64,000 bases of DNA from Candidatus Aldehydirespirator sp. (GTDB taxonomy: Bacteria > Actinomycetota > Acidimicrobiia > Acidimicrobiales > Aldehydirespiratoraceae), in assembly GCA_965203635.1 (NCBI GenBank), contig OZ241903.1, positions 2,290,583 through 2,354,582 on the forward strand. Direction: 5' to 3'. Of the stretch, positions 33,862 to 57,804 are shown one piece after another. How positions within the stretch are numbered: the first letter of the stretch is position 1; each line of letters opens with the position of its first letter. The notes under the pieces are model-generated. The model saw only the letters and a list, made by a program, of their open reading frames with translations, did no database searches and had not been told where the DNA came from. The position numbers were made by a program, and so were the translations under genes.

Positions 33862-34820
33862 CAGAAGTAGCCCTCCCGCTTCTTCGCCTCCATGGAGCCG
33901 GACTGGTCGTGGTCGATCACCCGGCCCTCCCTTTCGGAGCGGGTGGCACCGGCCATCTCGGCCGCGACCTCCGACACGGTGGCCGCGGTCGACTCGACCG
34001 CACCGGTGAGCGGGTAGCACCCCAGCGTGCGGAAGCGCACCGACCGCGCCTCGGGCCGCTCGCCCGCCTCGAACCTGAACCGGTCGTCGTCCACCATTAT
34101 CAGGGTCCCGTCCCGTTCGACCACCGGTCTCGGCGCGGCGAAGTACAGCGGCACGACCTCTATGCCGCTGGCCGCGATGTAGTACCACACGTCCAACTCG
34201 GTCCAGTTGCTCAACGGGAACACCCGGATGCTCTCGCCACCGGAGATGCGGCCGTTGTAGTGGTTCCACAGCTCGGGCCGCTGGTTCCTCGGATCCCATC
34301 GGTGTAGCCGGTCCCGGAAGCTGAAGACCCGCTCCTTGGCCCGCGAGCGCTCCTCGTCGCGCCGGGCCCCGCCGAACGCAGCGTCGTATCGGCCGGCGTC
34401 GAGGGCCTGCTTGAGGGCCCGGGTCTTCATCACGTCGGTGTAGTGCTGTGACGAGTGGTCGAACGGGTTGATCTGTGCCGCGACCCCGTCTGGGTTGGTG
34501 TGCACCACCAATTCGAAGCCGATCTCGTCGGCCATCCGGTCCCGGAAGGCGATCATCTCGGAGAACTTCCAGGTCGTGTCGATGTGCAGCAACGGGAAGG
34601 GGATCGGGCCGGGATGGAACGCCTTGCGGGCGAGGTGCAGCATCACCGAGCTGTCCTTGCCGATCGAGTAGAGCATCACGGGGTTGCTGAACTGCGCTCT
34701 GACCTCGCGGATGATGTGGATGCTCTCGTCCTCGAGTCGCTGCAGCCGTTCCGGCAGCTCCCCGGCCGTGGGGCGGCTAGGCGGGGCGGGACGAGGTGTG
34801 GAGGTCGTCGGCCTTGTCAC
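33861..34820 (-). CDS. cysD: sulfate adenylyltransferase subunit 2
   Basis: [21 protein letters not shown] (PP-loop) and C-terminal KKREGYF. The GTG start at 34820 overlaps the tal end by 44 nt, so the start is uncertain. Confidence 0.92.
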
Positions 34821-38428: not shown

Positions 38429-40108
38429 ATGGCGAGGATGCGTCGAATCCTGGTCTCGATCCTGCTGGCCGCGCTGGCGACCACCGCGGTCGGGTCGTAT
38501 GTCCAGGCGCGGCGCATCAACGCCGACTCCGATCCGGGCTGGGTCTCCGACACCGGCCCTCCGGAGATGGTGGTGTCCACGCCGCTGCTGAACGTCCGCC
38601 GGACGCCGTCGTGGCTGTCGGCTCCGGTCACCGAGGCCCGCCTGTTCGAGCGGCTCTCCGGCGTGGCCGAGCTGCCCAGCGCTCCGCCGCAGACGTGTCT
38701 GGCCGTCTACCGCAACGGTGAGCCCATCATGAGCGAGCAGGCTGAGGTGCCGCTGGTGCCGTCCTCGCTGATGAAGATCGTCACCGCAGCTGTGATCCTC
38801 GAGACCGCGGGACCCGCGGCCACCTTCACCACCGAGGCCTTCGTGCGCACGGCGGACCTCAGCGCGGCTGCCGGCGGTGTGCTCACCGGCGACGTCTATC
38901 TGGTCGGGCGGGGCGATCCCGTCCTGTCGACGCTCTCCTACATAAGGCGCTTCCCCGAGCCCATGGTCCACACCGACTTCACGGACTTGGCCGTGCAGGC
39001 CGCGGCAAGCCTGCGCGATCGGGGCATCTCTGTGGTGGAGGGCAGCGTCCTCGCCGACGAGTCGCGCTTCCCCGAAGCGGAGCGGGACTACTCCGGCCAA
39101 CGCGTCCAGCCCGACGACCGGCCGATCTGGAAGCAGTCCTACGTGAACAGCAACCAGGTCGGTCCCCTGTCCGCGCTGCTGCTCAACGACGGGTACGTGT
39201 CCTTCGCGGCGTCGGCGGACTACGCCAGCCGGCGGGAGAACGTGCGGGCCGTCGATCCCGCTCTCCACGCCGCGCAGGTGTTGGACGGATTGATCGAGGC
39301 CCGCGGCATCCGTGTCGCGGCGGAGGCCAGCAAGGGCACCGCGCCGCCGCTGTCTGAGCTTCACTCGCTGGGCAGCGTCGAGTCGCCGCCCATGTCCGAG
39401 ATTGTGGCTCGGATGCTGCGCTACTCGGACAACACCACTGCCGAGATGCTCCTGAAGGACATCGGCAGACGCTTCTCGGGCTCGGCCCGCGCCGAAGCGG
39501 TGACCGACGTCCACGACGTGCTGGAGAGACTGCTGGACGTCCCTACCGAAGGGATCGTCATTGTCGACGGCTCGGGACTCTCGCTGCACAATCTGCTGAC
39601 CTGTGACCTGATCGCCAGACTGTTGCTGCGGGCCGGCCCCGACTCGCCTCTGGTGAGCGGCCTGGCCGTGGTGGGGGAGAGCGGCACCCTGCGGGACTGC
39701 GAGGCGGAGCAACCCTCCGATGAGGCCGTCATCGACGCACCCGGTCTTGCCGACGGTGCGGTGGACAACCCGGTGTGGGCCAAGAGCGGGACTCTCAACG
39801 ATGTCTCGGCCCTCGCGGGGGTCACCGTGGCTCGCAACGGCGACGTGCTCACGTTCGCGCTGATCTCCAACCGCGAAGGTCTCATCTTCGATCTCGGCTT
39901 CTGCAACGACTTGCAGCGCGGCCTCATCGCGGCTGCGGCCGGCCACCCGTATGGACCGTCCTCGGCCGACGCCCTGCTCCATCCGCAGCCCGCGAGGGCG
40001 CCGGTAGTAGTCCCCGATCCCGAGTCAGGCAACGGCCAAGTAGACCCCGATCCCGAATCAGGCAACGGCCAAGTAGACCCCGATCCCGAGTCAGGCGACG
40101 GCCAATAG
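38429..40108 (+). CDS. dacB: D-alanyl-D-alanine carboxypeptidase/endopeptidase (PBP4, S13 family)
   Basis: Signal/anchor MARMRRILVSILLAALATTAV, SxxK as PSSLMK, YSDN (SxN) and KSGT (KTG-like). The C-terminus carries three 33-bp tandem units. Confidence 0.88.
   Translation: MARMRRILVSILLAALATTAVGSYVQARRINADSDPGWVSDTGPPEMVVSTPLLNVRRTPSWLSAPVTEARLFERLSGVAELPSAPPQTCLAVYRNGEPIMSEQAEVPLVPSSLMKIVTAAVILETAGPAATFTTEAFVRTADLSAAAGGVLTGDVYLVGRGDPVLSTLSYIRRFPEPMVHTDFTDLAVQAAASLRDRGISVVEGSVLADESRFPEAERDYSGQRVQPDDRPIWKQSYVNSNQVGPLSALLLNDGYVSFAASADYASRRENVRAVDPALHAAQVLDGLIEARGIRVAAEASKGTAPPLSELHSLGSVESPPMSEIVARMLRYSDNTTAEMLLKDIGRRFSGSARAEAVTDVHDVLERLLDVPTEGIVIVDGSGLSLHNLLTCDLIARLLLRAGPDSPLVSGLAVVGESGTLRDCEAEQPSDEAVIDAPGLADGAVDNPVWAKSGTLNDVSALAGVTVARNGDVLTFALISNREGLIFDLGFCNDLQRGLIAAAAGHPYGPSSADALLHPQPARAPVVVPDPESGNGQVDPDPESGNGQVDPDPESGDGQ
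40012..40108. repeat. 33-bp tandem repeat x3 encoding DPDPESGNGQV at the dacB C-terminus
   Basis: CCCCGATCCCGAGTCAGGCAACGGCCAAGTAGA at 40012, 40045 and 40078 (the last unit is cut by the stop). Confidence 0.9.
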
Positions 40109-40122
40109 GAGCGAGGGCCACC

Positions 40123-40770
40123 GTGGCTACGCCGATGTTCGCGCTCCAGTCGGTGCTGCTCCCCGGATCGCCGCTGCCGCTGCACGTCTTCGAGCCTCGC
40201 TATGTGGCCATGCTCGACACCGTCATCTCGACGGACGCCGAAATGGGCGTCGTGCTGATCGAGCGGGGCCGCGAGGTCGGGGGCGGGGATGTGCGGTGCG
40301 ATGTGGCCACCATGGCCCGCGTCGTGGAGGCCCGGGAGTTGGCCGACGGCAGGCTGCTGGTGATGGCGCTGGGAGTCCGTCGGATCCGGGTGCGGCGGTG
40401 GCTGCCCGACGATCCATACCCCTGCGCCGAGACTGAGGACTGGCCAGATGAGCCCGAAGGTGAGTCGCCGCCGAGCGGCGAGCAGCTGCGGCAGTTGGGC
40501 GCACTGGTCTCGGAGGCACGCAGCCTGGCCCGGCGTCTCGAGATCGCGCCCGGGCCGCAGCACGAGGCAGCTGAAGTGGTTCCCGTGGATGTGGGCCGCG
40601 ACGCTTCCCAGGCCTCCTACCGGGCCGCGGCTCTTGCTCCACTCGGTCCACTCGACCGCTACGAGGTGCTCTGCACGCCGGGCGCCGGCCGGCGGCTCTC
40701 CGTCGCGCACCGTGCGGTGGCCGATGCCGTCGACCTGTTGAGAGCCCGGATCGAGCTGGGCGGCGGGTAG
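40123..40770 (+). CDS. LON N-terminal (substrate-binding) domain protein
   Basis: MFALQSVLLPGSPLPLHVFEPRY..GVVLI. Confidence 0.8.
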   Translation: MATPMFALQSVLLPGSPLPLHVFEPRYVAMLDTVISTDAEMGVVLIERGREVGGGDVRCDVATMARVVEARELADGRLLVMALGVRRIRVRRWLPDDPYPCAETEDWPDEPEGESPPSGEQLRQLGALVSEARSLARRLEIAPGPQHEAAEVVPVDVGRDASQASYRAAALAPLGPLDRYEVLCTPGAGRRLSVAHRAVADAVDLLRARIELGGG

Positions 40771-40816
40771 CGTGAGGGCCTGAGTGGCCCGTGAGCGAAG
40801 CGAACAAGAGCGGGCA
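40771..40816 (-). repeat. MIRU-like dispersed repeat, copy 3 (core only, inverted orientation)
   Basis: The reverse complement reads CCCGCTCTTGTTCGCTTCGCTCACGGGCCACTCAGGCCCTCAC. Confidence 0.75.
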
Positions 40817-40848
40817 ACAAGCTCACTGAAGGGCCGGAGGGACCAGGT

Positions 40849-41148
40849 TTGGCACGCAGGCAGGGCGTCGCAGAAGTCGTGGACCTGATCAAGGCCTACG
40901 TGCGCCAGGAGTTGCTCGGCCCGCTGCGGGGAGCCGGGCGGTGGGTGTCGATGGGTCTTGCCGGGAGCGTCGCGCTGGTCGTGGGTGTGATCCTGCTGCT
41001 GCTGTCGTTGCTGCGGGCTCTGCAGACCGAGACGGGCAGCGCCTTCGACGGGAGCCGGTCGTGGATTCCCTACGTGATCGCGATCGCCGCGCTCGCCGCG
41101 GTCGTCGCCCTGCTGTTGCGCCAGGTCGGCAAGCGAGGCCTCCGGTGA
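40849..41148 (+). CDS. small two-TM membrane protein (Holin-X-like)
   Basis: 99 aa, TTG start, two long hydrophobic helices. Confidence 0.5.
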   Translation: MARRQGVAEVVDLIKAYVRQELLGPLRGAGRWVSMGLAGSVALVVGVILLLLSLLRALQTETGSAFDGSRSWIPYVIAIAALAAVVALLLRQVGKRGLR

Positions 41149-41357
41149 CCGCGGAACCGGACCGGATCACCCGTGATTCGCTGGAGGACGCCCTGCGCGA
41201 CCTCCAAGCCGACATCGACCGGGACACCCAGCCGCTTCTCGTCAAGGTCGCGTACGGAGCGGCCGCGGCCGCCGGCGTCCTGATCGGCCTCGCCTACCTG
41301 ATTGGGCGAAGGGCCGGCCGGCTTCGCAGGACTGTCGTAGAGGTGAGGCGGGTCTGA
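41145..41357 (+). CDS. small single-TM membrane protein
   Basis: The GTG overlaps the previous stop (GTGA). 70 aa with a C-terminal TM and Arg-rich tail. Confidence 0.45.
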   Translation: MTAEPDRITRDSLEDALRDLQADIDRDTQPLLVKVAYGAAAAAGVLIGLAYLIGRRAGRLRRTVVEVRRV

Positions 41358-41360
41358 GGA

Positions 41361-41597
41361 ATGGGGCTGGTCGGCGGGAAGGCAGCCGGAGCCTGGATCA
41401 CCCGCCAGGCCGTGCGACGCGGCCTGCTCGGCAGTTCCCGGCTGTGGTTCGCGGCATTCGTAGCGCAGGGCGCGTTCAAGCTGGCGCGCCGGGCGATCGG
41501 ATCCCGCGAGCCCACGACAGTGTTGGAGGAACGGCTCGAGCCGGGTGCCGGCATCGAGATCCGGCACCTCAAGAGCACCCGCGGGAAGGGTGAGTGA
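41361..41597 (+). CDS. small hypothetical protein
   Basis: 78-aa ORF, third gene of the small co-directional trio. Confidence 0.45.
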   Translation: MGLVGGKAAGAWITRQAVRRGLLGSSRLWFAAFVAQGAFKLARRAIGSREPTTVLEERLEPGAGIEIRHLKSTRGKGE

Positions 41598-41616
41598 CTC
41601 GCGATGAAGCAAACCG

Positions 41617-41684
41617 TCTCCCGCTCCTGTTCGCTGCGCTCACGGGCCGCTCGGGCCACGGCCTCGCTTCGCTCGGCCTCTAAG
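41617..41684 (+). repeat. MIRU-like dispersed repeat, copy 4 (short form)
   Basis: TCTCCCGCTCCTGTTCGCTGCGCTCACGGGCCGCTCGGGCCACGGCCTCGCTTCGCTCGGCCTCTAAG. Confidence 0.8.
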
Positions 41685-41728
41685 CGGGACCGCGGCTGAG
41701 CCGCCACAGGCCGAGCCAGGCTGGTCCG

Positions 41729-41929
41729 ATGCGAGTCGTGCTGCGCAACCCGACCAGGGAGATCGACGTCGAGGGTCCGATGACGGTGCACACCCTGCTG
41801 CAACGCCTGGAGCTGAACCGGGAGTCTCATCTGGTGATATGCGACGGCGAGCTGGTCGCGGGTGACCGCACGCTGGCGGCGGACGCTTCGGTGGAGATCC
41901 GCAGCGTCATATCGGGCGGGTCGCGGTGA
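41729..41929 (+). CDS. ThiS/MoaD-family ubiquitin-like sulfur carrier (TtuB-like), with Gly-Gly followed by two extra residues
   Basis: 66 aa ending ..[12 protein letters not shown]. Lies immediately upstream of the TtuA-like gene. Confidence 0.7.
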
Positions 41930-41960
41930 GGTGCCGGGTAGCGATGAGGGCGGTGTCGCG

Positions 41961-42899
41961 GTGAAGTGCCGGGTGTGCCGCGGCGCGGCGGTGATCGACA
42001 TCCGGCGCCACAACGCCAACTTCTGCCGGGAGCACTTCCTGCGGCTGTGTCGCGACCAGGTGGAGAAGGCCATCCGACGCTTCGGCATGCTGCAGCCCGG
42101 CGAGCGGGTGCTGGTGGCGGTGTCGGGCGGCAAGGACAGCCTGGCCCTGTGGGACATCCTCGTGGACTTGGGGTACGACGCCGACGGCTTCTACCTGGGA
42201 CTCGGCATCGGCGACTACAGCGACGAATCCGCCGGCTACGCCCACCTCTACGCGGAGGGCCGGAACCTCACCCTCCACACCGTCGACCTGCCGCAGAGCC
42301 ACGGCTTCGACATCCCTACCGGCGCTCGCGCGGCCAAGCGGGCACCCTGTTCCGCGTGCGGTCTGTCCAAGCGGCATCTCTTCGACGACGCAGCCCGTCG
42401 CGGCGGCTACGACGCCCTCGCCACCGGCCACAACCTCGACGACGAGGCGGCGGTGCTGATGGGCAACACGCTCAGGTGGCAGACCGAGTACCTGGGCCGG
42501 CAACTGCCCGTGCTCGACGCCCGAGACGGCTTTCCCCGCAAGATCAAGCCCCTAGTGCGCCTCACCGAGCGCGAGACCGCGGCCTACTGCATCCTGAGGG
42601 GCATCGACTACATCGTCGAGGAGTGCCCCATGGCGGTCGGCAACAAGCACCTCGCGTACAAGGCCGCCCTCAACGACATCGAGGTGGAGTCGCCGGGAGC
42701 CAAGCACGACTTCTACTTCGGCTTCCTCGAGCGGGCCTCGGAGCGCTTCCGGGCCGAGGTCGAGCGGGACCGGGCCGCCCTGGCCGCGTGCGAGCGGTGC
42801 GGGTCGCCCACCGATGCCGGTGTGTGCGCCTTCTGCCGCCTGACCGATCGGGCGACAGTTGGAGCCCCGGTTCACTTCTCCGACCGCGGCCTCCCATGA
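41961..42899 (+). CDS. TtuA/Ncs6-type tRNA 2-thiolation PP-loop ATPase
   Basis: N-terminal CRVC..CREH zinc finger and PP-loop SGGKDS. CSACG and EECP Fe-S cysteines. C-terminal CERC..CAFC zinc finger. GTG 41931 is an alternative start. Confidence 0.8.
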   Translation: MKCRVCRGAAVIDIRRHNANFCREHFLRLCRDQVEKAIRRFGMLQPGERVLVAVSGGKDSLALWDILVDLGYDADGFYLGLGIGDYSDESAGYAHLYAEGRNLTLHTVDLPQSHGFDIPTGARAAKRAPCSACGLSKRHLFDDAARRGGYDALATGHNLDDEAAVLMGNTLRWQTEYLGRQLPVLDARDGFPRKIKPLVRLTERETAAYCILRGIDYIVEECPMAVGNKHLAYKAALNDIEVESPGAKHDFYFGFLERASERFRAEVERDRAALAACERCGSPTDAGVCAFCRLTDRATVGAPVHFSDRGLP

Positions 42900-43672
42900 C
42901 CGCCGGGGCGTTCGAGCCGGGCGAGCCGGTCCTGCTGATCGACCGCAAGAACCGTCGCTATCTGATCGACCTGGCCGCGGGCCGGGAGTTCCACACCCAC
43001 ACCGGTGTGATCGCCCATGACGACATCATCGGCGCGCCCGAAGGCGCCAGGTTGAAGTCCTCGCGCGGCTCGGCCTTCCTGGCCCTGCGCCCCACCCTGG
43101 CCGACGCCGTGCTCAAGATGCCCCGGGGAGCGCAGGTGGTGTACCCCAAGGACACGGGGGCGATCCTCGTGCTGGCCGACATCTTTCCGGGTGCCAGGGT
43201 GCTCGAAGCCGGGGTCGGCTCAGGGGCGCTGTCGATGTCGCTGCTGCGGGCGGGCGCGGTCGTGTCGGGCTACGAGCGGCGGGAGGACTTCTGTGCCCGG
43301 GCCCGGGCCAACGTCGAGCGCTTCTGCGGCCCCGAGGCGATGGAGCGGTACCGCACCGAGGTCCGGGACGTCTACGAGGGCATCGACGAGACCGGCCTCG
43401 ACCGGATGGTGCTCGACCTGCCGGAGCCGTGGCGGGTGGTTCCCCACGCCGCGCGGGCGCTGCGCACCGGCGGCATCCTGCTGGCCTACACGCCGAGCAT
43501 CGTGCAGGTCCAGAGGCTGCGCCGGGCGCTGGAAGACTCGCCGTTCGGTCTGCACGACACCGTCGAGGTGCTGCACCGGGGCTGGCATGTCGAGGGCGAC
43601 GCGGTGCGCCCCAACCACCGCATGGTGGCCCACACCGGCTTCCTGACGGTGAGCCGGCTCACTGCTTCGTGA
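42896..43672 (+). CDS. trmI: tRNA (adenine58-N1)-methyltransferase
   Basis: ATGA overlap with the previous gene. PRGAQVVYPKD, EAGVGSGALS and DLPEPW motifs. Same neighbourhood as Rv2118c relative to mpa. Confidence 0.9.
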   Translation: MTAGAFEPGEPVLLIDRKNRRYLIDLAAGREFHTHTGVIAHDDIIGAPEGARLKSSRGSAFLALRPTLADAVLKMPRGAQVVYPKDTGAILVLADIFPGARVLEAGVGSGALSMSLLRAGAVVSGYERREDFCARARANVERFCGPEAMERYRTEVRDVYEGIDETGLDRMVLDLPEPWRVVPHAARALRTGGILLAYTPSIVQVQRLRRALEDSPFGLHDTVEVLHRGWHVEGDAVRPNHRMVAHTGFLTVSRLTAS

Positions 43673-44529
43673 GACACTCGGGGCGGTGGCGCGCCGTCGC
43701 CGCAGCCGCGGCCGTGGTCTTGGCGGGAGCGGGTGTGGCGGTGGCCGCGGATGCGATCTGGGACGCCCTGACGGGGTCCGGTACGGACGGGGGAGTTGCT
43801 GCGCCGGCCGAACCCGCGGAGGTGCCCGATCCGGTTCCCACCTCCACCCGTCCGCCCTTGGACGATCCTCCCGATCCGGGTCCGGTGCCCGACGATCACG
43901 GCATCTCGGAGGCGGACCTGGCCGCCGCGGTGGCTTCATCGGTCCGGGTGGCGGCACCGGCATGCCGGGGGATCGTGCGCGAGGGCAGCGGGTTCGGGGT
44001 CTCCGACGGTGATCTCGTTGTGACCATCGCGCACCTGATGGTCGGGATGGAGGAGCCTGAGGTCGAGCTGGCGGACGGCCGCAAGCTGGCCGCGGTGACG
44101 GTGGCCTTCGATCCCGCCAACGACCTGGCCGTGCTGCGGGTGCCGGGCGCGGGCCTGCGCCCCCTGCCCCTCAGCGAAGCCGCGCCCGACGGGACGCTGG
44201 GAGCGCTGCTGGCCTGGGAGGCGGAGGGCGCTCCCGACCCGACGCCGTTCCGCATCGACCGGCCGGTGACGGTGCGAACCGAGCCGGTGGGCGGGGGCGA
44301 GCGCATCGAGCGCCCTTCGTGGCTCCTGGCCGCCGACACCGAGGTGGGCGACTCCGGCGCCGCCCTGGTGACCGAGCTGGACGGCCGGATCACCGCAGTG
44401 GGTGTGGCCTGGGGCGCCTCCCGGCGCGGGGGAGGCGGGGTGGCCTACGCCACCCGGTCGAGCGCGGTGGAGACTCTGTTGGCGTCGTCCGATCTCAACG
44501 AGCGTGCCGAACTGCCCGGCTGCGGCTGA
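43669..44529 (+). CDS. secreted/membrane-anchored trypsin-like (S1) serine protease
   Basis: GTGA overlap start and an N-terminal hydrophobic anchor. GSGFGV..TIAHL (His), NDLAVLRV (Asp) and GDSGAAL (Ser). Confidence 0.8.
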   Translation: MRHSGRWRAVAAAAAVVLAGAGVAVAADAIWDALTGSGTDGGVAAPAEPAEVPDPVPTSTRPPLDDPPDPGPVPDDHGISEADLAAAVASSVRVAAPACRGIVREGSGFGVSDGDLVVTIAHLMVGMEEPEVELADGRKLAAVTVAFDPANDLAVLRVPGAGLRPLPLSEAAPDGTLGALLAWEAEGAPDPTPFRIDRPVTVRTEPVGGGERIERPSWLLAADTEVGDSGAALVTELDGRITAVGVAWGASRRGGGGVAYATRSSAVETLLASSDLNERAELPGCG

Positions 44530-44584
44530 TCGGCTGCGGGTGTCTCTGGGCTTGAGGCGCAGCCCTAGCGCGGCGCCCGGTCGC

Positions 44585-44818
44585 TCACACCTCTATGAAG
44601 ATGCACTCCCCGGGGCATTCCTCGGCCGACTCGATCACGGCCTCCTCCTGGCCGGCGGGCACCGCGGCGAGCCCGTCCGGTCCACCGGGATCGGAGAACA
44701 CATTGCCATCTTCCACTACATACGCGAGCCCGTCGTCGAGGAGGGTGAAGACGTCGGGGGCGATCTCCTCGCACAGTCCGTCCCCCGTGCACAGATCCTG
44801 ATCAATCCAGACCTTCAT
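44585..44818 (-). CDS. small ferredoxin (single-cluster type)
   Basis: 77 aa. DLCTGDGLCEEIAP ... ECPGECI. Confidence 0.85.
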   Translation of the reverse strand: MKVWIDQDLCTGDGLCEEIAPDVFTLLDDGLAYVVEDGNVFSDPGGPDGLAAVPAGQEEAVIESAEECPGECIFIEV

Positions 44819-45084
44819 GTCGGTAGCGGTACCTCTCTTCAGTGGGGCTCTCTACGTGGGGGCAGGCCCGACTCGGTCGGAGCAGCCCGCCGCGGACCGC
44901 TCTTCTAAGCAGCATAGCGGCTGCGGGTTCCAAACATTGCCAGGAAGCCTCGACTATTGCCAACATCACCGGCCGACAGTCTTCCGGTTCGCCTCCTCAC
45001 AGAGCACTAGTGCACAGTCTGGCGCCCGTGCCGTCTAGGGTGTCGTCCTACCCGCAATCCATCAAGCCGCGCAGGAGGTGAGCT

Positions 45085-46839
45085 GTGAGCGAGGCCGGCA
45101 CCGGCGACTCAGCGAGAGACCTGGACCGTCTGCGCCAGCTTGTGTCCGAGCTGGAGAGCGAGGTTGCCTCGCTGCGGCGGCGCCTGCACGACGCACCCAA
45201 GCGGGTGCGGATGCTCGAGGAGCGGCTGGCCGACACCAAGGGCCGTCTCACCCAGGCCGTGTCGCAGAATGAGCGGCTCACGACCATGCTCCGCGACGCG
45301 CGCGAGCACATCGGCTCGCTGCGCGAGGAGGTCGAGAAGCTCACCCAGCCGCCCAGCGGTTACGGCACCGTGCTCGGGTGCAACGACGACGGCACCGTGG
45401 ACGTGCGGGCCGGGGGCCGCAAGATGCGGGTCGCGGTCCATCCCGAGCTCGCCGACGACCTCAAGGCCGGCGAGGAGGTCGCGCTCAACGAATCGTTCAG
45501 CGTGGTGCTGGCCCGCCGGCCGGATCGCACCGGAGAGGTAGCCACCGTCAAGGAGCTGCTGCCGGGGGGCGACCGGGCCGTGGTGCTGGGCCGCGCCGAC
45601 GAGGAGCGGGTCGTCGAGCTCAGCGCGGTGGTCTCGGCCGAGCCCATCCGCAGTGGCGACAACGTGCTCATCGACGCCTCGGGCGATCTCGTCATCGAGC
45701 GCCTGCCCCGCCCCGAGGTGGAGGATCTCATCCTGGAGGAGGTGCCCGACACCTGCTACGACGATGTCGGAGGCCTCGACGTTCAGATCGAGCAGATCAC
45801 CGACGCGGTGGAACTGCCGTTCGTGCACCACACCCTGTTCGCCGAGTACGACCTGCCCGCGCCCAAGGGCGTGCTGCTCTACGGGCCGCCGGGCTGTGGC
45901 AAGACCCTCATCGCCAAGGCCGTGGCCAACAGCCTGGCCAGCAAGGTGTCGGAGCTGTCGGGCGACGCCCGGGCCCGCAGCTTCTTCCTGAACATCAAGG
46001 GACCCGAGCTGCTCAACAAGTACGTGGGCGAGACCGAGCGGCAGATCCGCCTGGTGTTCCAGCGGGCCCGGGAGAAGAGCGAGCAGGGCTGGCCCGTCAT
46101 CGTCTTCTTCGACGAGATGGAGTCGCTGTTCCGCACCCGGGGCTCGGGAATCAGCTCCGACATCGAGTCGACCATCGTCCCCCAGCTCCTGGCCGAGATC
46201 GACGGCGTGGAGGCTCTGCGCAACGTCATCGTGATCGGAGCGTCCAACCGCGAGGACCTCATCGACCCGGCCATCCTTCGCCCCGGTCGCCTCGACGTGA
46301 AGATCAAGATCGAGCGGCCCGACGCCGAGGCGGCCGCGTCCATCTTCGCCCGCTACCTGATCCCGAGCCTGCCGATCGCGGCCGAGATGGTCGACACCGT
46401 CGGCGGTGGCGACCCGGACAAGGCGGTGCGGGGCATGATCGAGCAGACCGTCGAGGACATGTACCGGCCCGCGGACCCGAACCGCTTTCTGGAGGTGACC
46501 TACCAGAACGGCGACAAGGAGGTCATGTACTACCGGGACTTCGCCTCGGGGGCGATGATCGAGAACGTGGTCCGGCGGGCCAAGAAGCTGGCCATCAAGC
46601 GCGAGATCGCCGGAGGGACCCGCGGCATCATGACCGCCGACCTGCTCGCCTCCGTGCGCCAGGAGTTCAAGGAGCACGAGGACCTGCCCAACACCACCAA
46701 CCCCGACGACTGGGCCCGGATATCGGGAAAGAAGGGCGAGCGCATCGTGTTCGTGCGCACCCTGGTTTCCAGCGACGAGGAGGACATCGCCTCCGGCGGG
46801 CGCTCCATCGAGAGGGTGCAGACCGGCCAGTACCTGTAG
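45085..46839 (+). CDS. arc: proteasome-associated AAA ATPase ARC/Mpa
   Basis: AGGAGG plus GTG start and an N-terminal coiled coil. Walker [10 protein letters not shown]-terminal proteasome-docking GQYL. Confidence 0.95.
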
Positions 46840-46909
46840 CCGGTCGCCGGCCGTGGGCCAGCATCGTCTGCCATCCCCACAAGTTCACCATTCCCCACAA
46901 GGAGGAGCC

Positions 46910-48076
46910 ATGCCTTCCGCAAAGCCCTTGTCGTGGAGCGCGCTGGCCGTCGTCTGCGCCGTGATCCTGCTCGCCGCCGCGTGCGGCGATGACGCCGGCG
47001 AGGCCGGCGACGGCGCGGCGGCGCCCGAGGACACCGCGCCGCCCGAGGACACCGCCGCCCCCGCCGAGCCCAGCGTCACCGCGGCCGACGCCGTCGAGGT
47101 CACCCAGGGCGGCGACCTGCTGCAGACGGTGCTGGGGCGAGGCAGGCTGGTGTGCGGCGTGTCGGGCACCAGGGTGATCTTCTCGGAGACACGGCCCGAC
47201 GGCAGCGTGGTCGGCGTCGACGCCGACTACTGCCGGGTTGTGGCGGCGGTCATGTTCGGCGACGCCGACGCGGTGGAGTACGTGTCGCTCACCACCGGAG
47301 AGCGCTTCACAGCCCTCCAGACCGGCGTCATCGACGTGCTGATTCGCAGCACCACATGGACGCAGACCCGCGACACCGAGCTGGCGCTGGACTTCGGGCC
47401 GGTGATCTACTACGACGGCCAGCAACTCATGGCCCGGGCCGGCGACGACTTCTCGCCCTCCTCGGACGTGGCCGACATCGCCGGGGCGGTGGTGTGCGCC
47501 CTGGCCGGGACGACGACCGAGCAGAACGTCTCCGACGCCGCCGACGCCGCCGGGATCGACATCACCCTCACCACCCTCGAGGACTTCGACGCCATCACCG
47601 AGAGCTTCATCCAGGGATCATGCGACGTGGTCACCGCCGACGGCTCGGCGCTGGCCGGGCGCAAGGCGAAGCAGCAGCCCGACGACCAGGAGTGGGTGAT
47701 CTTCCCGGCCACCCCGATCTCCAAGGAGCCGCTGGCCCCGGTGTACCTCCACAACCAGTCGCGCTTCGGCGACGTGGTGAACTGGGCGGTGTACGCCACC
47801 ATCATCGCGGACGAGAAGGGCATCACCTCCGCCAACGTCGACGACATGGCGGCCAGCCCGCCCGACGCGGAGGTGGCCCGCCTGCTCGGTGGCGAGGGCG
47901 AGCTCCAGACCGCTATGGGCCTGGCTCCCGACGCCTTCTACCAGGCCATCTCCCAGGTGGGGAATTACGACGAGATCCTCGGCCGGCACTTGGAGCCGGC
48001 CGGTCTGACCCGGGCCGGCACGATCAACGCCGGTTGGCGTGACGGCGGCCTGATCTATGCCCCTCCCGCCCGGTGA
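46910..48076 (+). CDS. amino-acid ABC transporter substrate-binding lipoprotein (AapJ-like), paralog 1
   Basis: AAGGAGGAG Shine-Dalgarno and lipobox LLAAAC. 388 aa. Confidence 0.88.
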   Translation: MPSAKPLSWSALAVVCAVILLAAACGDDAGEAGDGAAAPEDTAPPEDTAAPAEPSVTAADAVEVTQGGDLLQTVLGRGRLVCGVSGTRVIFSETRPDGSVVGVDADYCRVVAAVMFGDADAVEYVSLTTGERFTALQTGVIDVLIRSTTWTQTRDTELALDFGPVIYYDGQQLMARAGDDFSPSSDVADIAGAVVCALAGTTTEQNVSDAADAAGIDITLTTLEDFDAITESFIQGSCDVVTADGSALAGRKAKQQPDDQEWVIFPATPISKEPLAPVYLHNQSRFGDVVNWAVYATIIADEKGITSANVDDMAASPPDAEVARLLGGEGELQTAMGLAPDAFYQAISQVGNYDEILGRHLEPAGLTRAGTINAGWRDGGLIYAPPAR

Positions 48077-48175
48077 CGGCGGAGCAGCGCCGGTGAGAAC
48101 GATCCTCAGTTGAAACCGCCTCGCCGGGCCAATACGGTGGCAGCGTCATTGACGGACAGCCCACGGAGGGAACCA

Positions 48176-49342
48176 GTGACCAGAAACAGACCACTGCTAT
48201 GGCGCGCGCTTGCAGTGCTATTTGCCGTGACCTTGATCGCAGCATCATGCGGCGACGACGAAGACGACGTAGAGGTAACGGCGCCTACTGAGACGGCAGC
48301 GCCGGATACTGACGATGCCGAGCCTGCCGAGACCACGACCACCGCGGCCGACGCCATCGAGGACACCCAGGACGGCGACCTGCTCGACACGGTCCTCGCT
48401 CGCGGCGAGTTGAACTGCGGCGTTTCCGGTTCTGCGGTTGCATTCTCGGAGACCCAGCCCGACGGATCCCAGACCGGTTTCGACGCCGACTACTGCCGGG
48501 CGGTGGCCGCGGCGCTGTTCGGCGACGCCGAAGCGGTCGTCTTCACTCCTTTGACCGCGGCCGAGCGGTTCACCGCGGTGCAGACGGGCGAGGTCGACGT
48601 GCTGATGCGCAACACCACCTGGACCCAGAGCCGTGACACCGAGGTCGGCATGGACTTCGGTCCCACCACCTACTACGACGGCCAGCAGCTCATGGCCCGC
48701 GAGTCGGCCGGCTTCTCGGGCTCGTCCCAGGTTGCCGACATCGCCGGCGCGGTCGTGTGCACCAACGCCGGAACCACCACCGAGCAGAACATCGCCGACG
48801 CGGCCGACGCAGCCGGGATCGACATACAGCTCACGACCTTCGAGGACTTCGACCAGGTCACCGAGAACTTCATCAACGGCGCCTGCGACGTGATCACGAC
48901 CGACGGCTCGGCCCTGGTCGGGCGCAAGGCCAACAACCAGCCTGCGGGTGAGAACTGGGTGATCTTCCCGGCCACGCCGATCTCCAAGGAGCCCCTCGGC
49001 CCGACCTACGGGCAGAACCAGTCCCGCTTCGCCGACGTGGTGAACTGGACCGTGTACGCCACGGTCATCGCCGATGAGAAGGGCATCACCTCTGCCAACG
49101 TGGCCGACATGGCGGCCAGCCCGCCCGACGCCGAGGCGGCCCGCCTGCTGGGCGCAGCCGACGACGAGCAGCAGTCGAACATGGGTCTGGCTCCCGACGC
49201 CTTCTACCAGGTGATCGCCCAGGTCGGGAACTACGACGAGATCTACTCCCGCCACCTCATCCCGGTCGGGCTGACCCGCGAGGGCTCGGCCAACGCCGGC
49301 TGGCTCGACGGAGGTCTCATCTACGCACCGCCGGCCCGCTAA
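48176..49342 (+). CDS. amino-acid ABC transporter substrate-binding lipoprotein (AapJ-like), paralog 2
   Basis: GGAGGG plus GTG 48176 and lipobox LIAASC. 388 aa, colinear with paralog 1. Confidence 0.88.
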   Translation: MTRNRPLLWRALAVLFAVTLIAASCGDDEDDVEVTAPTETAAPDTDDAEPAETTTTAADAIEDTQDGDLLDTVLARGELNCGVSGSAVAFSETQPDGSQTGFDADYCRAVAAALFGDAEAVVFTPLTAAERFTAVQTGEVDVLMRNTTWTQSRDTEVGMDFGPTTYYDGQQLMARESAGFSGSSQVADIAGAVVCTNAGTTTEQNIADAADAAGIDIQLTTFEDFDQVTENFINGACDVITTDGSALVGRKANNQPAGENWVIFPATPISKEPLGPTYGQNQSRFADVVNWTVYATVIADEKGITSANVADMAASPPDAEAARLLGAADDEQQSNMGLAPDAFYQVIAQVGNYDEIYSRHLIPVGLTREGSANAGWLDGGLIYAPPAR

Positions 49343-49395
49343 GGGGCGACGGCCTAGAGAAACCTCACCTGAAGGACATACTCGTCTAGGTTTGC

Positions 49396-49425
49396 GGGGG
49401 TCCGGGACGGCAGTCCCGGACCCCC
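49396..49425 (+). terminator. strong hairpin between binding-protein and permease genes (attenuator/terminator candidate)
   Basis: GGGGGTCCGGGAC-GGCA-GTCCCGGACCCCC, a 13-bp perfect stem, followed by GTTGCCGTTTCC. Confidence 0.5.
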
Positions 49426-49479
49426 GTTGCCGTTTCCATAGCCGAAGACCGCGACCGACCGCCCCGGAGGCGCCCCGGC

Positions 49480-51015
49480 GTGTCCAACACCGATCAAGCC
49501 ACGCTGGCCGCGACCCAGTCGCAGCGCCCGCCCTTCTACCGCGACGTCACCGTCGTCAAGTGGCTGGCCCAGGTCTTCACGCTCCTGCTGGTCGTCTTCG
49601 CCCTGTTCTTCCTCACCACTCAGGCGCTCGAGAATCTCGACCGCCAGGGAATCGAGATCAAGTACGACTTCCTGGGCATCGGGCTCGGGAGCGACCTCCG
49701 GGAGGGCATCGACACCGATCCCGACACCGCCGGCCGGGCGCTGTGGGCCGGAGCGGTCAACACGATCCGCATCGCCGCGGGCGGGATCGTGGCGGCCACC
49801 ATCCTCGGGGTGCTGATCGGGGTCGGGCGGCTGTCGAGCAACTGGATCGTCAGCCGCATGTGCAGCGTCTTCGTCGAGACAATGCGCAACATCCCGCTGC
49901 TGGTCCAGATCGTCTTCATCTGGGCGCTGGTTGCCACCCTTCCCGACGTGGAGTTGGACCAGGGGCCCATCAACGGCCTCCTGCACCTCTCCAACAAGGG
50001 GGTGTCGGTGCCGCGCGTGCACATCGACGACGGCTTCTACCAGTGGCTCGTCTTCATCGGTATCGGCTGGCTGGTCGGCTCGTTGGTCAAGCGCCGCCAG
50101 GAGCGCCGTCACGACGCCACCGGCCACGACACCTACCCGGTGCTGAGCTTCCTGGCCGTGCTGGCCGTCTTCGGCGCGGTGGGCTGGGTGGCGCACCCGA
50201 TATTCGGCTGGGTGGGCGCCATCTTCGACTTCATCGGCGACGGGTTCTCCTCGTTGACGCCGGTCGTCGTGCAGGTGGTTCTGTCGCTGGCCGCGCTGGC
50301 GGCGGCGGCGTGGTGGATCCGCCGCTTCCTGGCCCGGCACCGCACGCCGGCGGGGCTCATGAAGCTCACCGACGACGACAAGTTCCGGATCATCTTCGCC
50401 GGGGTGGGCGCCCTGGCGGTGATCGCGTTCGTGCTGGTGGTCTGGCCCGGTCTGTCGAGCTGGATCATCAACTCCGGCAGCGACCTGCTCGGGGTCATCG
50501 CCGACAAGTTCGGGGACGGCCGCACCGGACGGCCCATCGACATCAAGCGGCCCGACGTCGAGCAGCTCGGCAACTTCCCCAATCCCGGCCCGGCCGGGCT
50601 GAACCTCACCCAGGGCGGCGCCGCGGTGTTCTTCGGCGTCGTCCTCTACACCGCGTCGTTCATCGCCGAGATCGTGCGGGGCGGCATCCTGGCCGTCCCG
50701 AAGGGCCAGACCGAGGCCGCCCAGGCGGTCGGGCTGCGGCGGGTGACGATGCTGCGCCGGGTCATCCTGCCCCAGGCCTTCCGGGTGATACTCCCGCCGC
50801 TGGGCAACCAGTACCTGAACCTCACCAAGAACACGTCGCTGGCCATCGCCGTGGGCTACAGCGACTTCGTGCAGGTGGGCCAGATCGTCTACAACCAGAC
50901 GGGCAAGACGCTCGAGGTGATCTCCCTTTGGATGCTGTTCTACCTGGCCTGCTCGTTGACGATCTCGGTAGTGGTCAACTTCTTCAACATCCGCATGAAG
51001 ATCGTGGAGCGCTGA
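49480..51015 (+). CDS. amino-acid ABC transporter permease (AapQ-like)
   Basis: 511 aa. The TMD halves are split by a long insert, as in the AapQ/BztB type. EAA-like loop AVPKGQTEAAQAVGL. Confidence 0.88.
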   Translation: MSNTDQATLAATQSQRPPFYRDVTVVKWLAQVFTLLLVVFALFFLTTQALENLDRQGIEIKYDFLGIGLGSDLREGIDTDPDTAGRALWAGAVNTIRIAAGGIVAATILGVLIGVGRLSSNWIVSRMCSVFVETMRNIPLLVQIVFIWALVATLPDVELDQGPINGLLHLSNKGVSVPRVHIDDGFYQWLVFIGIGWLVGSLVKRRQERRHDATGHDTYPVLSFLAVLAVFGAVGWVAHPIFGWVGAIFDFIGDGFSSLTPVVVQVVLSLAALAAAAWWIRRFLARHRTPAGLMKLTDDDKFRIIFAGVGALAVIAFVLVVWPGLSSWIINSGSDLLGVIADKFGDGRTGRPIDIKRPDVEQLGNFPNPGPAGLNLTQGGAAVFFGVVLYTASFIAEIVRGGILAVPKGQTEAAQAVGLRRVTMLRRVILPQAFRVILPPLGNQYLNLTKNTSLAIAVGYSDFVQVGQIVYNQTGKTLEVISLWMLFYLACSLTISVVVNFFNIRMKIVER

Positions 51016-51068
51016 GATGGCTGGAGTGCGCCGATGACGGTTCCGAATGAAGGTCCTGGAGTGCACCG

Positions 51069-53216
51069 ATGACTGCGCCGATGGGTGATCCGGCCCCGAC
51101 GGGCGCAGGTCCGGTGGAGCCGTGGGCCGGCGAGCGCGAGCCTGCCCAGAAGCCCGAGGAGCCGAGCCTGTCCGCGGGCGAGTGGCTCGGCAGGAACCTG
51201 TTCTCCTCCCCGGTCAACTCGCTGCTCACGGTCGTCTTCTCGCTGCTGGTGCTCCTGGCCGTGCGCGGCCTGCTCAACTTCACCTTCAGCGAGGAGCGAA
51301 CCTGGCGGGCCGTCAAGACCAACATGCGGTTCCTGTTCACCCACGCCTACCCCCAGGACCAGTACGCCCGCATCTGGGTCTGCGTGGGCGCCATCGCGGT
51401 GCTCTCCGGGCTCTCGGTGGGGCTGCTGGCCCGGGTCGGCCGCGGCATCTCGATGAAGAAGCTGTCGATGAACCTGATGGCCACCGGCGGCGTGATCGCG
51501 CTGGGGGTCGTTCTGCGCGAGCCCTCGGCCATCGTCGACGACGAGGGCGTGGCCCTGCACCGCGACGCCTCAGAGGCCGTCGGCAACTCCTTCGCCGGCT
51601 GGCTGGACGCCAACGCATTCACGGTTATGGCCGTGCTGGTGCTGGCCAACGCCGCGCTCGCGCTGTGGTTCCACCTCCAGGGCGCCTACCTGCGCGGCGG
51701 ACCGGAGCCGAGGATCGCTCACGGGGCGCTCGTGCTGGCGGGGATCGGGGTGCTGATCGTGCAGCAGTACGCCACCGGCGAGATCGTCCGGGAGTCGTTC
51801 GCCGACGCCATGTCGGACCGGGCCTGGTGGTGGCTGGCCGCGGCCGTGCTCACCGGCGCGGGCGCAGCCCTGTGGTCCGGGCTGGGCGACGCCCGCCGGC
51901 GCAACACCTTCGTGCCGGCCATGTACGTGTTCTTCGCCGGTGCCGGGGTGATGGTGCTGTCGGCGTGGGTGTACCCGTGGGGGCACTACGGCTTCCTGGA
52001 GGGCGAGTTCATCAACGAGCCGGGTCGCACCGTCGCCATGACCACGAAGCTGCCGTGGACGGTCATGCTGGCCCTGCTGGTGGCCACCTACGAGCTGGGA
52101 CGAGTGCTCAGGGCGGCAGGAGCGGGCCCGAGGCTGCGGATCCCGCTGAACCTGCTGTGGGTGCTGACCCCCTTCGTCCTGTACTGGGCCGTGCTGCGCG
52201 ACCCCGACCTCGACTGGGACCACGTGCTGTCCACCGACCTCCCGATGGCGCTGTTCTTCGCGGCCTTCGGGGGCCTGGTGGTGTGGTTCCTGGCCCACCC
52301 CCGCATCGGCGAGGCCGGCAGGGTGATGGCCGTCGTGCTGGTGGCGGTGGCCGCGCTCAACTGGGTGGCCGCGTACTTCGGCTGGTACCCGATGCTGCAG
52401 AAGGCGCGGATCAGCTTCCTGCTGCTGGCGGTGGTCGCCATGCTGGCCCACAACTTCGCCGGGGACCGCTCCCAGCGGATGAAGCTGGTGGCCGTGTGGG
52501 TCGCGACCATGGCCGTGTTCCACTGGCTGGTCACGCTGGTCAACTCGCCCTCGACCGTCGACACGCCCACCGACGCCCTGATCGGCGGCTTCGGCATAAC
52601 CCTCATCGTGGCCGTGTTCACGCTGCTGCTGGCCTTCCCGATGGGCGTGCTGCTGGCGCTGGCCCGCACGTCCAAGCTGCCGATCTTCAGGGTGCTGGCC
52701 ACCGTCTACATCGAGGTGTTCCGGGGCGTGCCGCTGATCACGGTGCTGTTCTTCTTCACCCTGATCTTCAACCTGTTCCTTCCCGACAACATGACCTTGG
52801 TGGACATCGCCGGGGCCACCATCGGCTTCGCCCTGTTCTCGGCCGCCTACCTGGCCGAGAACGTGCGCGGCGGTCTGCAGGCCGTCCGCCGGGGCCAGTA
52901 CGAGGCCTCCGACGCGGTCGGGTTCACCACCGTCCAGCGCACCCTGTTCATCGTGCTGCCCCAGGCCCTCAGGGTGTCGATACCGCCGCTGGTCGGCCAG
53001 GTCATCGCCACGTTCAAGGAGACCTCGCTGCTGGCCATCGTCGGCATCTTCGACTTCCTGCGGATCGCCGACAAGGTCATCTCCGCCCAGTCGGAGTTCC
53101 TCGGCGTCAAGCGCGAGGGCCTGCTGTTCGTGTCGTTCGTCTACTGGATCTTCGCCTACAACATGTCCAAGCACAGCCAGCGCCTCGAGAAGCGGCTGGG
53201 AGTGGGGGAGCGCTAG
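51069..53216 (+). CDS. amino-acid ABC transporter permease (AapM-like) with very long polytopic N-terminal region
   Basis: 715 aa. The conserved permease core (..YIEVFRGVPLITVLFF.. ..AVRRGQYEASDAVGF..) is confined to the last ~215 aa. Confidence 0.85.
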   Translation: MTAPMGDPAPTGAGPVEPWAGEREPAQKPEEPSLSAGEWLGRNLFSSPVNSLLTVVFSLLVLLAVRGLLNFTFSEERTWRAVKTNMRFLFTHAYPQDQYARIWVCVGAIAVLSGLSVGLLARVGRGISMKKLSMNLMATGGVIALGVVLREPSAIVDDEGVALHRDASEAVGNSFAGWLDANAFTVMAVLVLANAALALWFHLQGAYLRGGPEPRIAHGALVLAGIGVLIVQQYATGEIVRESFADAMSDRAWWWLAAAVLTGAGAALWSGLGDARRRNTFVPAMYVFFAGAGVMVLSAWVYPWGHYGFLEGEFINEPGRTVAMTTKLPWTVMLALLVATYELGRVLRAAGAGPRLRIPLNLLWVLTPFVLYWAVLRDPDLDWDHVLSTDLPMALFFAAFGGLVVWFLAHPRIGEAGRVMAVVLVAVAALNWVAAYFGWYPMLQKARISFLLLAVVAMLAHNFAGDRSQRMKLVAVWVATMAVFHWLVTLVNSPSTVDTPTDALIGGFGITLIVAVFTLLLAFPMGVLLALARTSKLPIFRVLATVYIEVFRGVPLITVLFFFTLIFNLFLPDNMTLVDIAGATIGFALFSAAYLAENVRGGLQAVRRGQYEASDAVGFTTVQRTLFIVLPQALRVSIPPLVGQVIATFKETSLLAIVGIFDFLRIADKVISAQSEFLGVKREGLLFVSFVYWIFAYNMSKHSQRLEKRLGVGER

Positions 53217-53296
53217 CCGTGCCGACCGTCTACACACACACCGCAGGGGGATGAAGCCATGAGTGTCAGCGACATGGCCACAGGGGGGACTGCACC

Positions 53297-54076
53297 ATGA
53301 GCGTCAGCGACGCCACCACCGCCTTGACCGAGGAGCTGGCCGCCCGCGACGACATGATCGTGTGCGAGGGGGTCAACAAGTGGTTCGGGGACTTCCAGGC
53401 CCTCGACGGCATCACCGCCGTCATCAAGGAGCGCGAGGTCGTGGTGGTGCTCGGCCCGTCGGGCTCGGGCAAGTCCACCTGGATCCGCTGCATCAACCGC
53501 CTCGAGGCCCACCAGGAGGGCCGCATCGTCATCGACGGCGTGGAACTCACCAACGACCTGCGCAACATCGAGAAGATCCGCTCCGAGGTCGGCATGGTGT
53601 TCCAGCAGTTCAACCTGTTCCCACACCTCACCGTGCTCGACAACATCATGCTGGCCCCGATCTGGGTGCGCAAGAAGCCCAAGCGGGAGGCCGAGGAGCT
53701 GGCCCGCTCGCTGCTGGAGCGGGTCGGCATACCCGAGCAGGCCGAGAAGTATCCGGGGCAGCTCTCCGGCGGGCAGCAGCAGCGGGTGGCCATCGCCCGG
53801 GCGCTGGCCATGGAGCCCAGGATCATGCTCTTCGACGAGCCCACCTCCGCCCTCGATCCCGAGATGATCAAGGAGGTCCTCGACGTGATGAAGGAGCTGG
53901 CGATGTCAGGCATGACCATGATGGTGGTCACCCACGAGATGGGCTTCGCCCGGGAGGTCGCCGACCGGGTGATCTTCATGGAGGACGGCCAGATAGTGGA
54001 GACCGGCACCCCAGAGCACTTCTTCACCAACCCCGAGGAGGAGCGCACCAGGCTCTTCCTCTCCCAGATCCTCTAA
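53297..54076 (+). CDS. amino-acid ABC transporter ATP-binding protein
   Basis: Walker [10 protein letters not shown], signature LSGGQQQRV and Walker [12 protein letters not shown]. Confidence 0.95.
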
Positions 54077-54121
54077 CCCCGACAACCCCTACCGGCAGTC
54101 GCCTGAGTAGCGTGCCGCTCG

Positions 54122-55740: not shown

Positions 55741-55787
55741 CCTCCGTTGTGGAAAACTGAGGTAGGCACCGAGCCGGGAGGAATCCA

Positions 55788-57754: not shown

Positions 57755-57804
57755 GAGCGGGGGCCCCTCGGGGCCCTCGCGCTGCTTCTGGGAGGTGACA
57801 GGCC

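Follow-up and report, generated by a model that had tools for sequence, protein, structure and literature searches.

Our results indicate that three adjacent genes in a 64,000-nt stretch of DNA from Candidatus Aldehydirespirator sp. (contig OZ241903.1, positions 2,290,583 to 2,354,582, forward strand; hereafter the window) probably belong to a conserved operon of the Acidimicrobiales that modifies the T-loop of tRNA. The genes, ttuB, ttuA and trmI, encode a ubiquitin-like sulfur carrier, a predicted tRNA thiolase and a tRNA methyltransferase, and the carrier would be made as a precursor from which a short C-terminal tail is clipped. An earlier sequence-only reading of this DNA had recognized such a trio, and this identification is borne out by profile, fold, PDB and alignment evidence. 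Among 137 relatives of the enzyme found in a scan of species-representative genomes, the best 80 loci were compared together with flanks of ~20 kb each. All 80 come from metagenome-assembled genomes (MAGs) of Acidimicrobiales type (Microthrixaceae, Iamiaceae, Ca. Aldehydirespirator, and sponge, ocean and groundwater bins), the group to which the closest relatives of the window also belong. The carrier gene lies immediately upstream of ttuA in 80 of the 80 loci and trmI lies downstream in 79, so that the complete block recurs in 79 of 80, which upholds the proposed co-occurrence of the three genes and is far beyond chance.

Identity of the three gene products

The carrier is encoded by an open reading frame (ORF) of 66 amino acids (aa) ending in VISGG-SR-TGA. 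It scored above the Pfam gathering thresholds of both SAMP2 (29.3 bits; gathering 27) and ThiS (23.7 bits; gathering 22.5), and a search with the single sequence gave a weak TtuB match (E 4e-4). A profile built from 39 diverse orthologues, in whose alignment 15 positions including VISGG are invariant, matched Pyrococcus furiosus SAMP2 (1.1e-9) and Thermus thermophilus TtuB (1.5e-9) in the PDB, with ThiS at 0.37. The AF2 model, made with database homologues, is a beta-grasp fold with a predicted local distance difference test score (pLDDT) of 89.6, in which residues 64-66 fall below 50 and are disordered. Its top Foldseek match is T. thermophilus TtuB (5ztb_E; template-modelling score 0.87, root-mean-square deviation 1.6 Å), and its nearest structural neighbours are TtuB chains from TtuA-TtuB complexes. 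By profile and predicted fold, the carrier is thus of the TtuB/SAMP2 type and a TtuB orthologue. The predicted model has the small beta-grasp fold of the TtuB, SAMP2 and Urm1 carriers. What it does not have is their free C-terminal Gly-Gly: the solved relatives all terminate exactly at Gly-Gly, but here Ser-Arg follows, and the characteristic end would appear only after processing. The masked Gly-Gly described earlier is therefore real. Public names of such carriers are inconsistent, the database homologues (P0001-P0240) being called thiamine biosynthesis protein ThiS or MoaD/ThiS.

The second gene has all the hallmarks that had been ascribed to it. When 81 orthologues were aligned with TtuA of Thermus and Pyrococcus, the invariant positions comprised the PP-loop motif SGGKDS (residues 55-60), the three cysteines of the [4Fe-4S] cluster (C130/C133/C222), the N-terminal zinc finger C3/C6/C22/H25 (CxxC...CxxH), the C-terminal zinc finger C277/C280/C289/C292 (CxxC...CxxC), and K137, the lysine to which TtuB is conjugated in Thermus (PMC3980101). 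A phmmer search against the whole PDB gave 306 bits for T. thermophilus TtuA (E 2e-90; 51.7% identity), 236 for P. horikoshii TtuA and 73.6 for NcsA. The NCBIfam models gave 255 bits for TtuA, 110 for NcsA and 65 for TtcA, and in Pfam the PP-loop domain was above gathering and TtuA_LIM_N reached 38.3 bits (cut-off 27). Judged from these scores, the enzyme is clearly of TtuA type and far from NcsA and TtcA; the sequence-only reading had likewise preferred TtuA to a TtcA enzyme acting at C32. We place the start of ttuA at GTG 41961 (M-K-C) and not at 41931, because the alignment to Thermus TtuA begins at this M1, the start site [AG]TG-AAG-TGC (M-K-C) is kept in every orthologue, and gene calls in relatives give 312 aa. 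NCBI calls the enzyme an ATP-binding protein, an adenine nucleotide alpha hydrolase or, wrongly, tRNA(Ile)-lysidine synthetase, and TIGR00269 family is a further public label; the JGI pipelines alone name its homologues (P0001-P0240) tRNA-5-methyluridine54 2-sulfurtransferase.

The third gene product has GCD14 and TrmI-like_N domains that exceed the Pfam gathering thresholds. It matches Mycobacterium tuberculosis Rv2118c best in the PDB (223 bits), followed by archaeal and Thermus TrmI (T. thermophilus 160 bits), and by this homology it is a TrmI orthologue. An exact-sequence look-up of the window TrmI matched no record.

Translational coupling of the block

The genes are packed so tightly that translation of each is likely linked to that of the one before. 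The TGA of ttuA (42897-42899) overlaps the ATG of trmI (42896-42898) as ATGA, as had been noted from the letters alone, and a 4-nt overlap of this kind (RTGA) is found at this junction in 64 of 78 loci. Similarly, 58 of 81 junctions between carrier and ttuA are RTGA overlaps, with the carrier frame normally ending inside the ttuA start codon. The window itself departs from this arrangement, with 31 nt between carrier and ttuA and no direct overlap. In orthologues that lack the duplication, the junction occurs once, as TCn GGn GGn NNN NNR TGA AGT GC. In the window a 20-nt direct repeat is present in two copies that are 95% identical with 35-nt spacing, and the junction between carrier end and ttuA start was therefore duplicated. 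The first copy supplies Ser-Arg-TGA of the carrier, and its decayed ttuA start opens a relic mini-ORF of 12 codons, whose GTG overlaps the carrier TGA and whose TGA overlaps the ttuA GTG, both as GTGA. This mini-ORF is probably a relay for termination-reinitiation.

Such relays are the rule wherever the direct overlap has been lost: in 19 of the 20 loci without it, one to four chained mini-ORFs with RTGA at both ends bridge the gap; multi-copy duplications are among these cases, as are gaps of 7, 10, 22 and 28 nt of independent origin. The recurrence of relays, and the fact that a single relay ORF requires a gap of 1 mod 3, speak for selection that ties translation of ttuA to that of the carrier. 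The junction is also a hot spot of short tandem duplications, of which one to four copies survive as open mini-ORFs. A scan of positions 40000-45200 for promoters and terminators gave no signal. Overall, gene order and overlaps support ttuB-ttuA-trmI as a conserved, translationally coupled unit. The claim of one coupled block thus stands for the conserved unit with its RTGA overlaps, with the amendment that in the window the carrier-ttuA junction is bridged by a relay and is not a simple overlap.

The C-terminal tail of the carrier

The tail after Gly-Gly is not special to this gene. Residues beyond VISGG occur in 80 of 81 carriers and, in a second sample, in 118 of 120 database homologues. 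The tail is 2 aa long in 46 carriers and ranges from 2 to 32 aa, and the stop codon is TGA in 80 of 81. Ala or Ser occupies the first tail position in 67 of 80 loci and 109 of 118 homologues (84-92%); the second position is unconstrained and the remaining sequence is variable. Two carriers, L060 and P0103, end exactly at Gly-Gly, and both have lost the overlap with ttuA and have no relay ORF. In a comparison set of 84 Thermus-type TtuB homologues, 61 end at Gly-Gly and 23 have 1-8 extra residues. Tailed ttuB genes that overlap ttuA exist outside Actinomycetota as well, in Marinithermus hydrothermalis (L086, 8001-9180, GG-HGALP) and in a Methylomirabilales MAG (L085, 8001-11571, GG-SADEV). In the latter, trmI lies 1.6 kb downstream of ttuA with a glycosyltransferase gene between them; judged by gene content, ttuAB and trmI are associated here a second time, independently, and the lineage is not one known to be thermophilic.

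Since the carrier stop sits at the ttuA start in most junctions, the tail is whatever separates Gly-Gly from the ttuA start codon. This raises an alternative to a clipped precursor: the tail might be a mere by-product of gene overlap, with no dedicated JAMM protease and no regulatory role, trimmed by a general carboxypeptidase or simply tolerated. The near-constant ending of the carrier frame at the ttuA start whatever the tail length, the lack of conserved sequence after the first residue, the two carriers that lost overlap and tail together and the sporadic tails of Thermus-type TtuB where ttuB overlaps ttuA all agree with this idea, as does the absence of a linked JAMM gene. However, an overlap with a tail of zero length (GGA-TGA or GGG-TGA) is possible in principle and was seen in none of the 81 junctions, and the Ala/Ser bias at the first position suggests a recognized cleavage site. 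Moreover, neither C-terminal adenylation nor iron ligation is compatible with a tail left in place (PMC7138817). We therefore consider the by-product explanation unlikely, while giving it more weight than any of the other alternatives discussed below.

For a carrier made as a precursor, the masked Gly-Gly must be exposed, because the C-terminal (thio)carboxylate of TtuB binds the unique iron of the TtuA cluster (PMC7138817). JAMM-type proteases are the known precedent: QbsD trims QbsE (GG-CF, 2 aa) and CxnF trims CxnE (GG + 10 aa) (PMC5925218). In Thermus, a JAMM mutant had disturbed TtuB conjugates and lowered thiolation (PMC3980101), and MoeZ is the E1 for carriers with Gly-Gly plus tail in actinomycetes (PMC5925218). 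As the sequence-only reading had remarked, no processing protease of this type is visible in the window, where a six-frame scan for H[ST]H..S..D and Pfam scans were negative; JAMM/MPN+ genes were likewise not found in the 80 loci or beside the tailed ttuB of L085 and L086, nor ThiF/MoeB-type E1 genes in the window or the 80 loci. By analogy, the tail protease is most likely an unlinked enzyme of the JAMM/Mec type. Of the earlier statement that the masked Gly-Gly implies a JAMM-type protease, the need for exposure holds, but the JAMM type follows from the QbsE/QbsD and CxnE/CxnF precedent. A MarP/HtrA-like protease encoded directly after trmI is an unlikely candidate: its N-terminal membrane anchor makes it probably extracytoplasmic. 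The modal two-codon tail sets GGNGGN 5-6 nt ahead of the ttuA start, and it would be tempting to see the Gly-Gly codons as the Shine-Dalgarno sequence of ttuA; support for this is weak, with GGR at Gly63 in 45% against a 27% background (31 canonical junctions).

A predicted T-loop modification module

We suggest that TrmI would methylate A58 to 1-methyladenosine (m1A58), and that TtuA, acting on the same tRNAs, would adenylate C2 of U54 (or 5-methyluridine 54, m5U54) through its PP-loop and exchange oxygen for sulfur via the [4Fe-4S] cluster, the donor being the thiocarboxylated C-terminal Gly of the carrier. The carrier frame would pass Gly-Gly and normally stop at the TGA within the ttuA start, which would couple the two genes. 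The short tail, with its preference for Ala or Ser in the first position, would be clipped by an unlinked peptidase, likeliest of JAMM/Mec type, after which an unlinked E1-like enzyme (TtuC/MoeZ type) may adenylate and thiocarboxylate Gly64. TrmI and TtuA would thus serve as one T-loop module. The orthology, motifs, fold, synteny, gene overlaps and tail statistics reported above are direct observations, from which we infer the modified tRNA positions, the removal of the tail and the identities of the protease and the E1. The conserved coupled unit fits the published dependence of 54-thiolation on m1A58 (PMC6313347, PMC7912444), for which m1A58 made by TrmI is a positive determinant (PMC6313347, PMC7912444, PMC13602947). 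The window and 39 loci contain no tRNA genes, and hence no T-loop determinants there to inspect. The only m5U-methyltransferase-like gene noticed in the window, for an RlmD/RumA-like (uracil-5)-methyltransferase, is truncated at the window edge to its C-terminal part; its best matches are rRNA enzymes, with TrmA matching weakly, and it bears on U54 methylation in the host.

Several points weigh against this proposal. Neither the window nor the ~20-kb flanks of the 80 loci contain a gene for a JAMM protease, E1, rhodanese or cysteine desulfurase, and the maturation and activation steps therefore rest on precedent. The enzyme scores 255 bits against the NCBIfam TtuA model NF049949, below its equivalog cut-off of 450; note that this model is named after the Pyrococcus enzyme, and as the Thermus enzyme is by score the closer relative, the missed cut-off weakens automatic naming more than orthology. 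TtuA enzymes are able to use free sulfide in vitro (PMC7138817). Finally, the hosts (MAGs of Microthrix and of marine, groundwater and sponge origin) do not appear to be thermophiles, and reviews describe 5-methyl-2-thiouridine 54 (m5s2U54) as thermophile-specific and not found in mesophiles (PMC6313347, PMC5372745). Reviews up to 2026 regard it as an adaptation of thermophiles (PMC6313347, PMC5372745, PMC13602947), and our literature search found no paper on TtuA/TtuB in Actinomycetota or in mesophiles. A complete and strongly conserved TtuB-TtuA pair is here joined to TrmI throughout an order whose members are mostly non-thermal (Microthrix and lineages from the sea, sponges and groundwater). 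The prediction is that 54-thiolation would occur, and have a role, at moderate temperature as well. The operon also provides independent genomic support for the dependence of 2-thioribothymidine 54 (s2T54) on m1A58 known from Thermus. The near-universal masking of Gly-Gly, together with the Ala/Ser-biased first residue, points to a maturation protease, and the relay mini-ORFs are a clear natural case of translational coupling under selection.

The block had further been placed next to arc and the Pup-proteasome genes, as a second ubiquitin-like system beside the first. The position is correct in outline: arc, dop, pup and prcB/prcA are all downstream, with arc 1.4 kb from the end of trmI and not 1.2 kb as stated. 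Among the 48 loci with enough flank, arc lies 0.5-5.8 kb past trmI in 39 and is absent in nine, where the three-gene block is still intact. In M. tuberculosis, trmI (Rv2118c) also lies near mpa (Rv2115c), upstream of this proteasomal ATPase gene, and mycobacteria are not known to have ttuAB; our literature search found no paper naming both Rv2118c and Rv2115c. Because nine of the 48 loci break the linkage and keep the block, and because trmI is near mpa in M. tuberculosis, the closeness to arc is most likely an inherited trmI-arc synteny and not a property of the carrier. The placement thus offers no evidence that a second ubiquitin-like system works together with the proteasome.

It could still be hypothesized that clipping of the pro-TtuB tail is a regulated switch, in which a dedicated, unlinked protease for GG-Ala/Ser gates both U54 2-thiolation (efficient through the co-translated TrmI) and TtuB conjugation in non-thermophilic actinobacteria, with the conjugates handled by the neighbouring Arc/proteasome. 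If this were true, 54-thiolation would be a regulated and not a thermophile-specific mark, and two ubiquitin-like systems would interact. The idea is highly speculative and, in our view, very improbable.

Another scenario is that TtuA draws its sulfur from sulfide or another donor and does without the carrier. The carrier with its tail would then chiefly modify proteins in the manner of ubiquitin, or regulate TtuA, and might supply substrates to the adjacent Arc/proteasome. The frequent linkage to arc would suit this scenario, but not the nine loci without arc, nor the order in M. tuberculosis, where trmI is close to mpa and no ttuAB is known. A conjugating carrier would need its tail removed equally, and the tight coupling of carrier and ttuA, restored by relay ORFs where lost, argues for a stoichiometric partnership. 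The TtuA of organisms without ttuB uses sulfide, and T. thermophilus TtuA can do so in vitro, but ttuB is required in vivo in organisms that possess it (PMC7138817). In Thermus, TtuB is conjugated to Lys137 of TtuA, a lysine that is invariant here (PMC3980101). On balance, we give this scenario little credence. The least credible alternative is that the enzyme thiolates another position (2-thiouridine 34 as NcsA/Ncs6, or 2-thiocytidine 32 as TtcA), with an incidental link to trmI: fold and chemistry are common to the family, the NCBIfam cut-off was missed and the hosts are not thermophiles, but the scores for Thermus TtuA (306 bits) against NcsA (73.6) and the TtcA model (65), the presence of both TtuA-type zinc fingers, which TtcA does not have (PMC3980101), the operon with a T-loop enzyme in 79 of 80 loci, and the proximity of trmI in an unrelated phylum leave it hardly any room.

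Surrounding genes

The coordinates of all features are given in Table 1. Locus order is largely conserved, running from an S13 peptidase through a Lon-N-domain protein, three small ORFs, ttuB, ttuA and trmI to the MarP-like protease, a ferredoxin on the opposite strand and arc. The protein upstream of the carrier consists of a Lon N-terminal (substrate-binding) domain only. The three small ORFs that follow it (~99, 70 and 78 aa) are tightly packed and kept throughout the order. None could be assigned to a family with confidence; hydrophobic segments are present in the first and probably in the second. Just upstream of the carrier, an insertion of ~110 nt alters the C-terminus of the preceding small ORF. 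It is not present in the close relatives L001, L003 and L082; the inserted sequence gave no fold signal (z 0.40) and had no copy in 86 loci. The MarP/HtrA-like protease, a trypsin-fold serine protease, is encoded in ~70 of 80 loci.

Farther away, the sulfate-activation genes cysNC (encoding a GTPase fused to adenylylsulfate kinase) and cysD (PAPS_reduct family) are found beside tal and tkt, 7-10 kb ahead of the sulfur-carrier operon, a synteny kept in the close relatives L081 and L082. An ATP-binding cassette (ABC) transporter of amino-acid type, with two SBP_bac_3 genes, two unusually long permeases and one ATPase, stands between arc and dop/pup/prcBA and splits the Pup-proteasome cluster. 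The end of the window is a low-G+C island (54-55% compared with ~70% for the window). It contains a 1465-aa ORF with Eco57I/MmeI/N6_Mtase-type domains, which probably represents a type IIG/IIL restriction-modification gene, or a similar one, gained by horizontal transfer, and beside it a 601-aa ORF without a Pfam match.

Table 1. Features of the window and their positions (position 1 is the first nucleotide of the window).
Feature	Position	Strand	Basis or remark
ttuB-like sulfur-carrier/ubiquitin-like protein, precursor	41729-41929	+	64-aa beta-grasp body ending VISGG, then Ser-Arg and TGA
Gly63-Gly64 codons	41915-41920	+	ORF reading
Ser65-Arg66 tail codons	41921-41926	+	ORF reading
Duplicated carrier/ttuA junction, 20-nt direct repeat	41920-41939 and 41955-41974 (span 41920-41974)	+	two copies
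Relic mini-ORF, 12 codons	41926-41964	+	GTGA overlaps at both ends
ttuA, putative [4Fe-4S]- and ATP-dependent tRNA 2-thiouridine(54) synthetase orthologue	41961-42899	+	312 aa, GTG start; homology
trmI, tRNA (adenine58-N1)-methyltransferase orthologue	42896-43672	+	258 aa; GCD14 1.7e-24, TrmI-like_N 5.9e-19
Duplication/relay junctions	41920-41974		window; also loci L001-L013, L024, L027, L028, L047, L049, L075, L076
arc	45085-46839		downstream of trmI
dop	54107-55639		downstream
pup	55761-55982		downstream
RlmD/RumA-like methyltransferase, C-terminal part	1-504		cut by window edge
cysNC and cysD	31942-34820	-	
Lon N-terminal domain-only protein	40135-40770		upstream of carrier
Lon-N protein and three small ORFs	40135-41597		region
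Insertion upstream of carrier	41574-41685		~110 nt
MarP/HtrA-like serine protease	43735-44529		directly after trmI
Amino-acid-type ABC transporter	46634-54076		between arc and dop
Low-G+C island	~58000-64000		
601-aa ORF	57799-59601		
1465-aa ORF, probable restriction-modification gene	59596-63990	-	

Comparison with known systems

By homology, the pathway is a known one that here has a new and non-thermophilic host, and what is noteworthy is the hosts, the operon with trmI and the near-universal carrier precursor. The closest known system is TtuA/TtuB of T. thermophilus, which makes m5s2U54 together with TtuC, TtuD and IscS/SufS. The two enzymes (52% identity) share the zinc fingers, PP-loop, cluster cysteines and Lys137, and the two carriers share the fold and a body ending in ..ISGG, with ttuB immediately upstream of ttuA and the E1 unlinked. 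Unlike in Thermus, trmI is part of the same operon here, the hosts are apparently mesophilic or psychrotolerant Acidimicrobiales, and the carrier has a tail in 80 of 81 members, compared with 23 of 84 Thermus-type homologues.

TrmI has the same GCD14/TrmI-like_N domain pair as Rv2118c of M. tuberculosis and TrmI of T. thermophilus. Its place upstream of a proteasomal ATPase gene is shared with mycobacteria; what differs is its translational coupling (ATGA) to ttuA, a gene that mycobacteria are not known to have.

As for the carrier, archaeal SAMP2 and eukaryotic Urm1, which work with NcsA/Ncs6, belong to the same subfamily, SAMP2 being the best profile match, and they share with it the potential to be both sulfur carrier and protein modifier. 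However, those systems thiolate U34, whereas the predicted partner here is of TtuA and not of NcsA type. With QbsE/QbsD of thioquinolobactin and CxnE/CxnF of chuangxinmycin biosynthesis, the carrier has in common the extra residues after Gly-Gly, which in those systems are removed before adenylation by the E1 (PMC5925218). In those secondary metabolite pathways the JAMM gene lies within the cluster, whereas the window and the 80 loci have none, and the carrier described here would serve tRNA modification instead.

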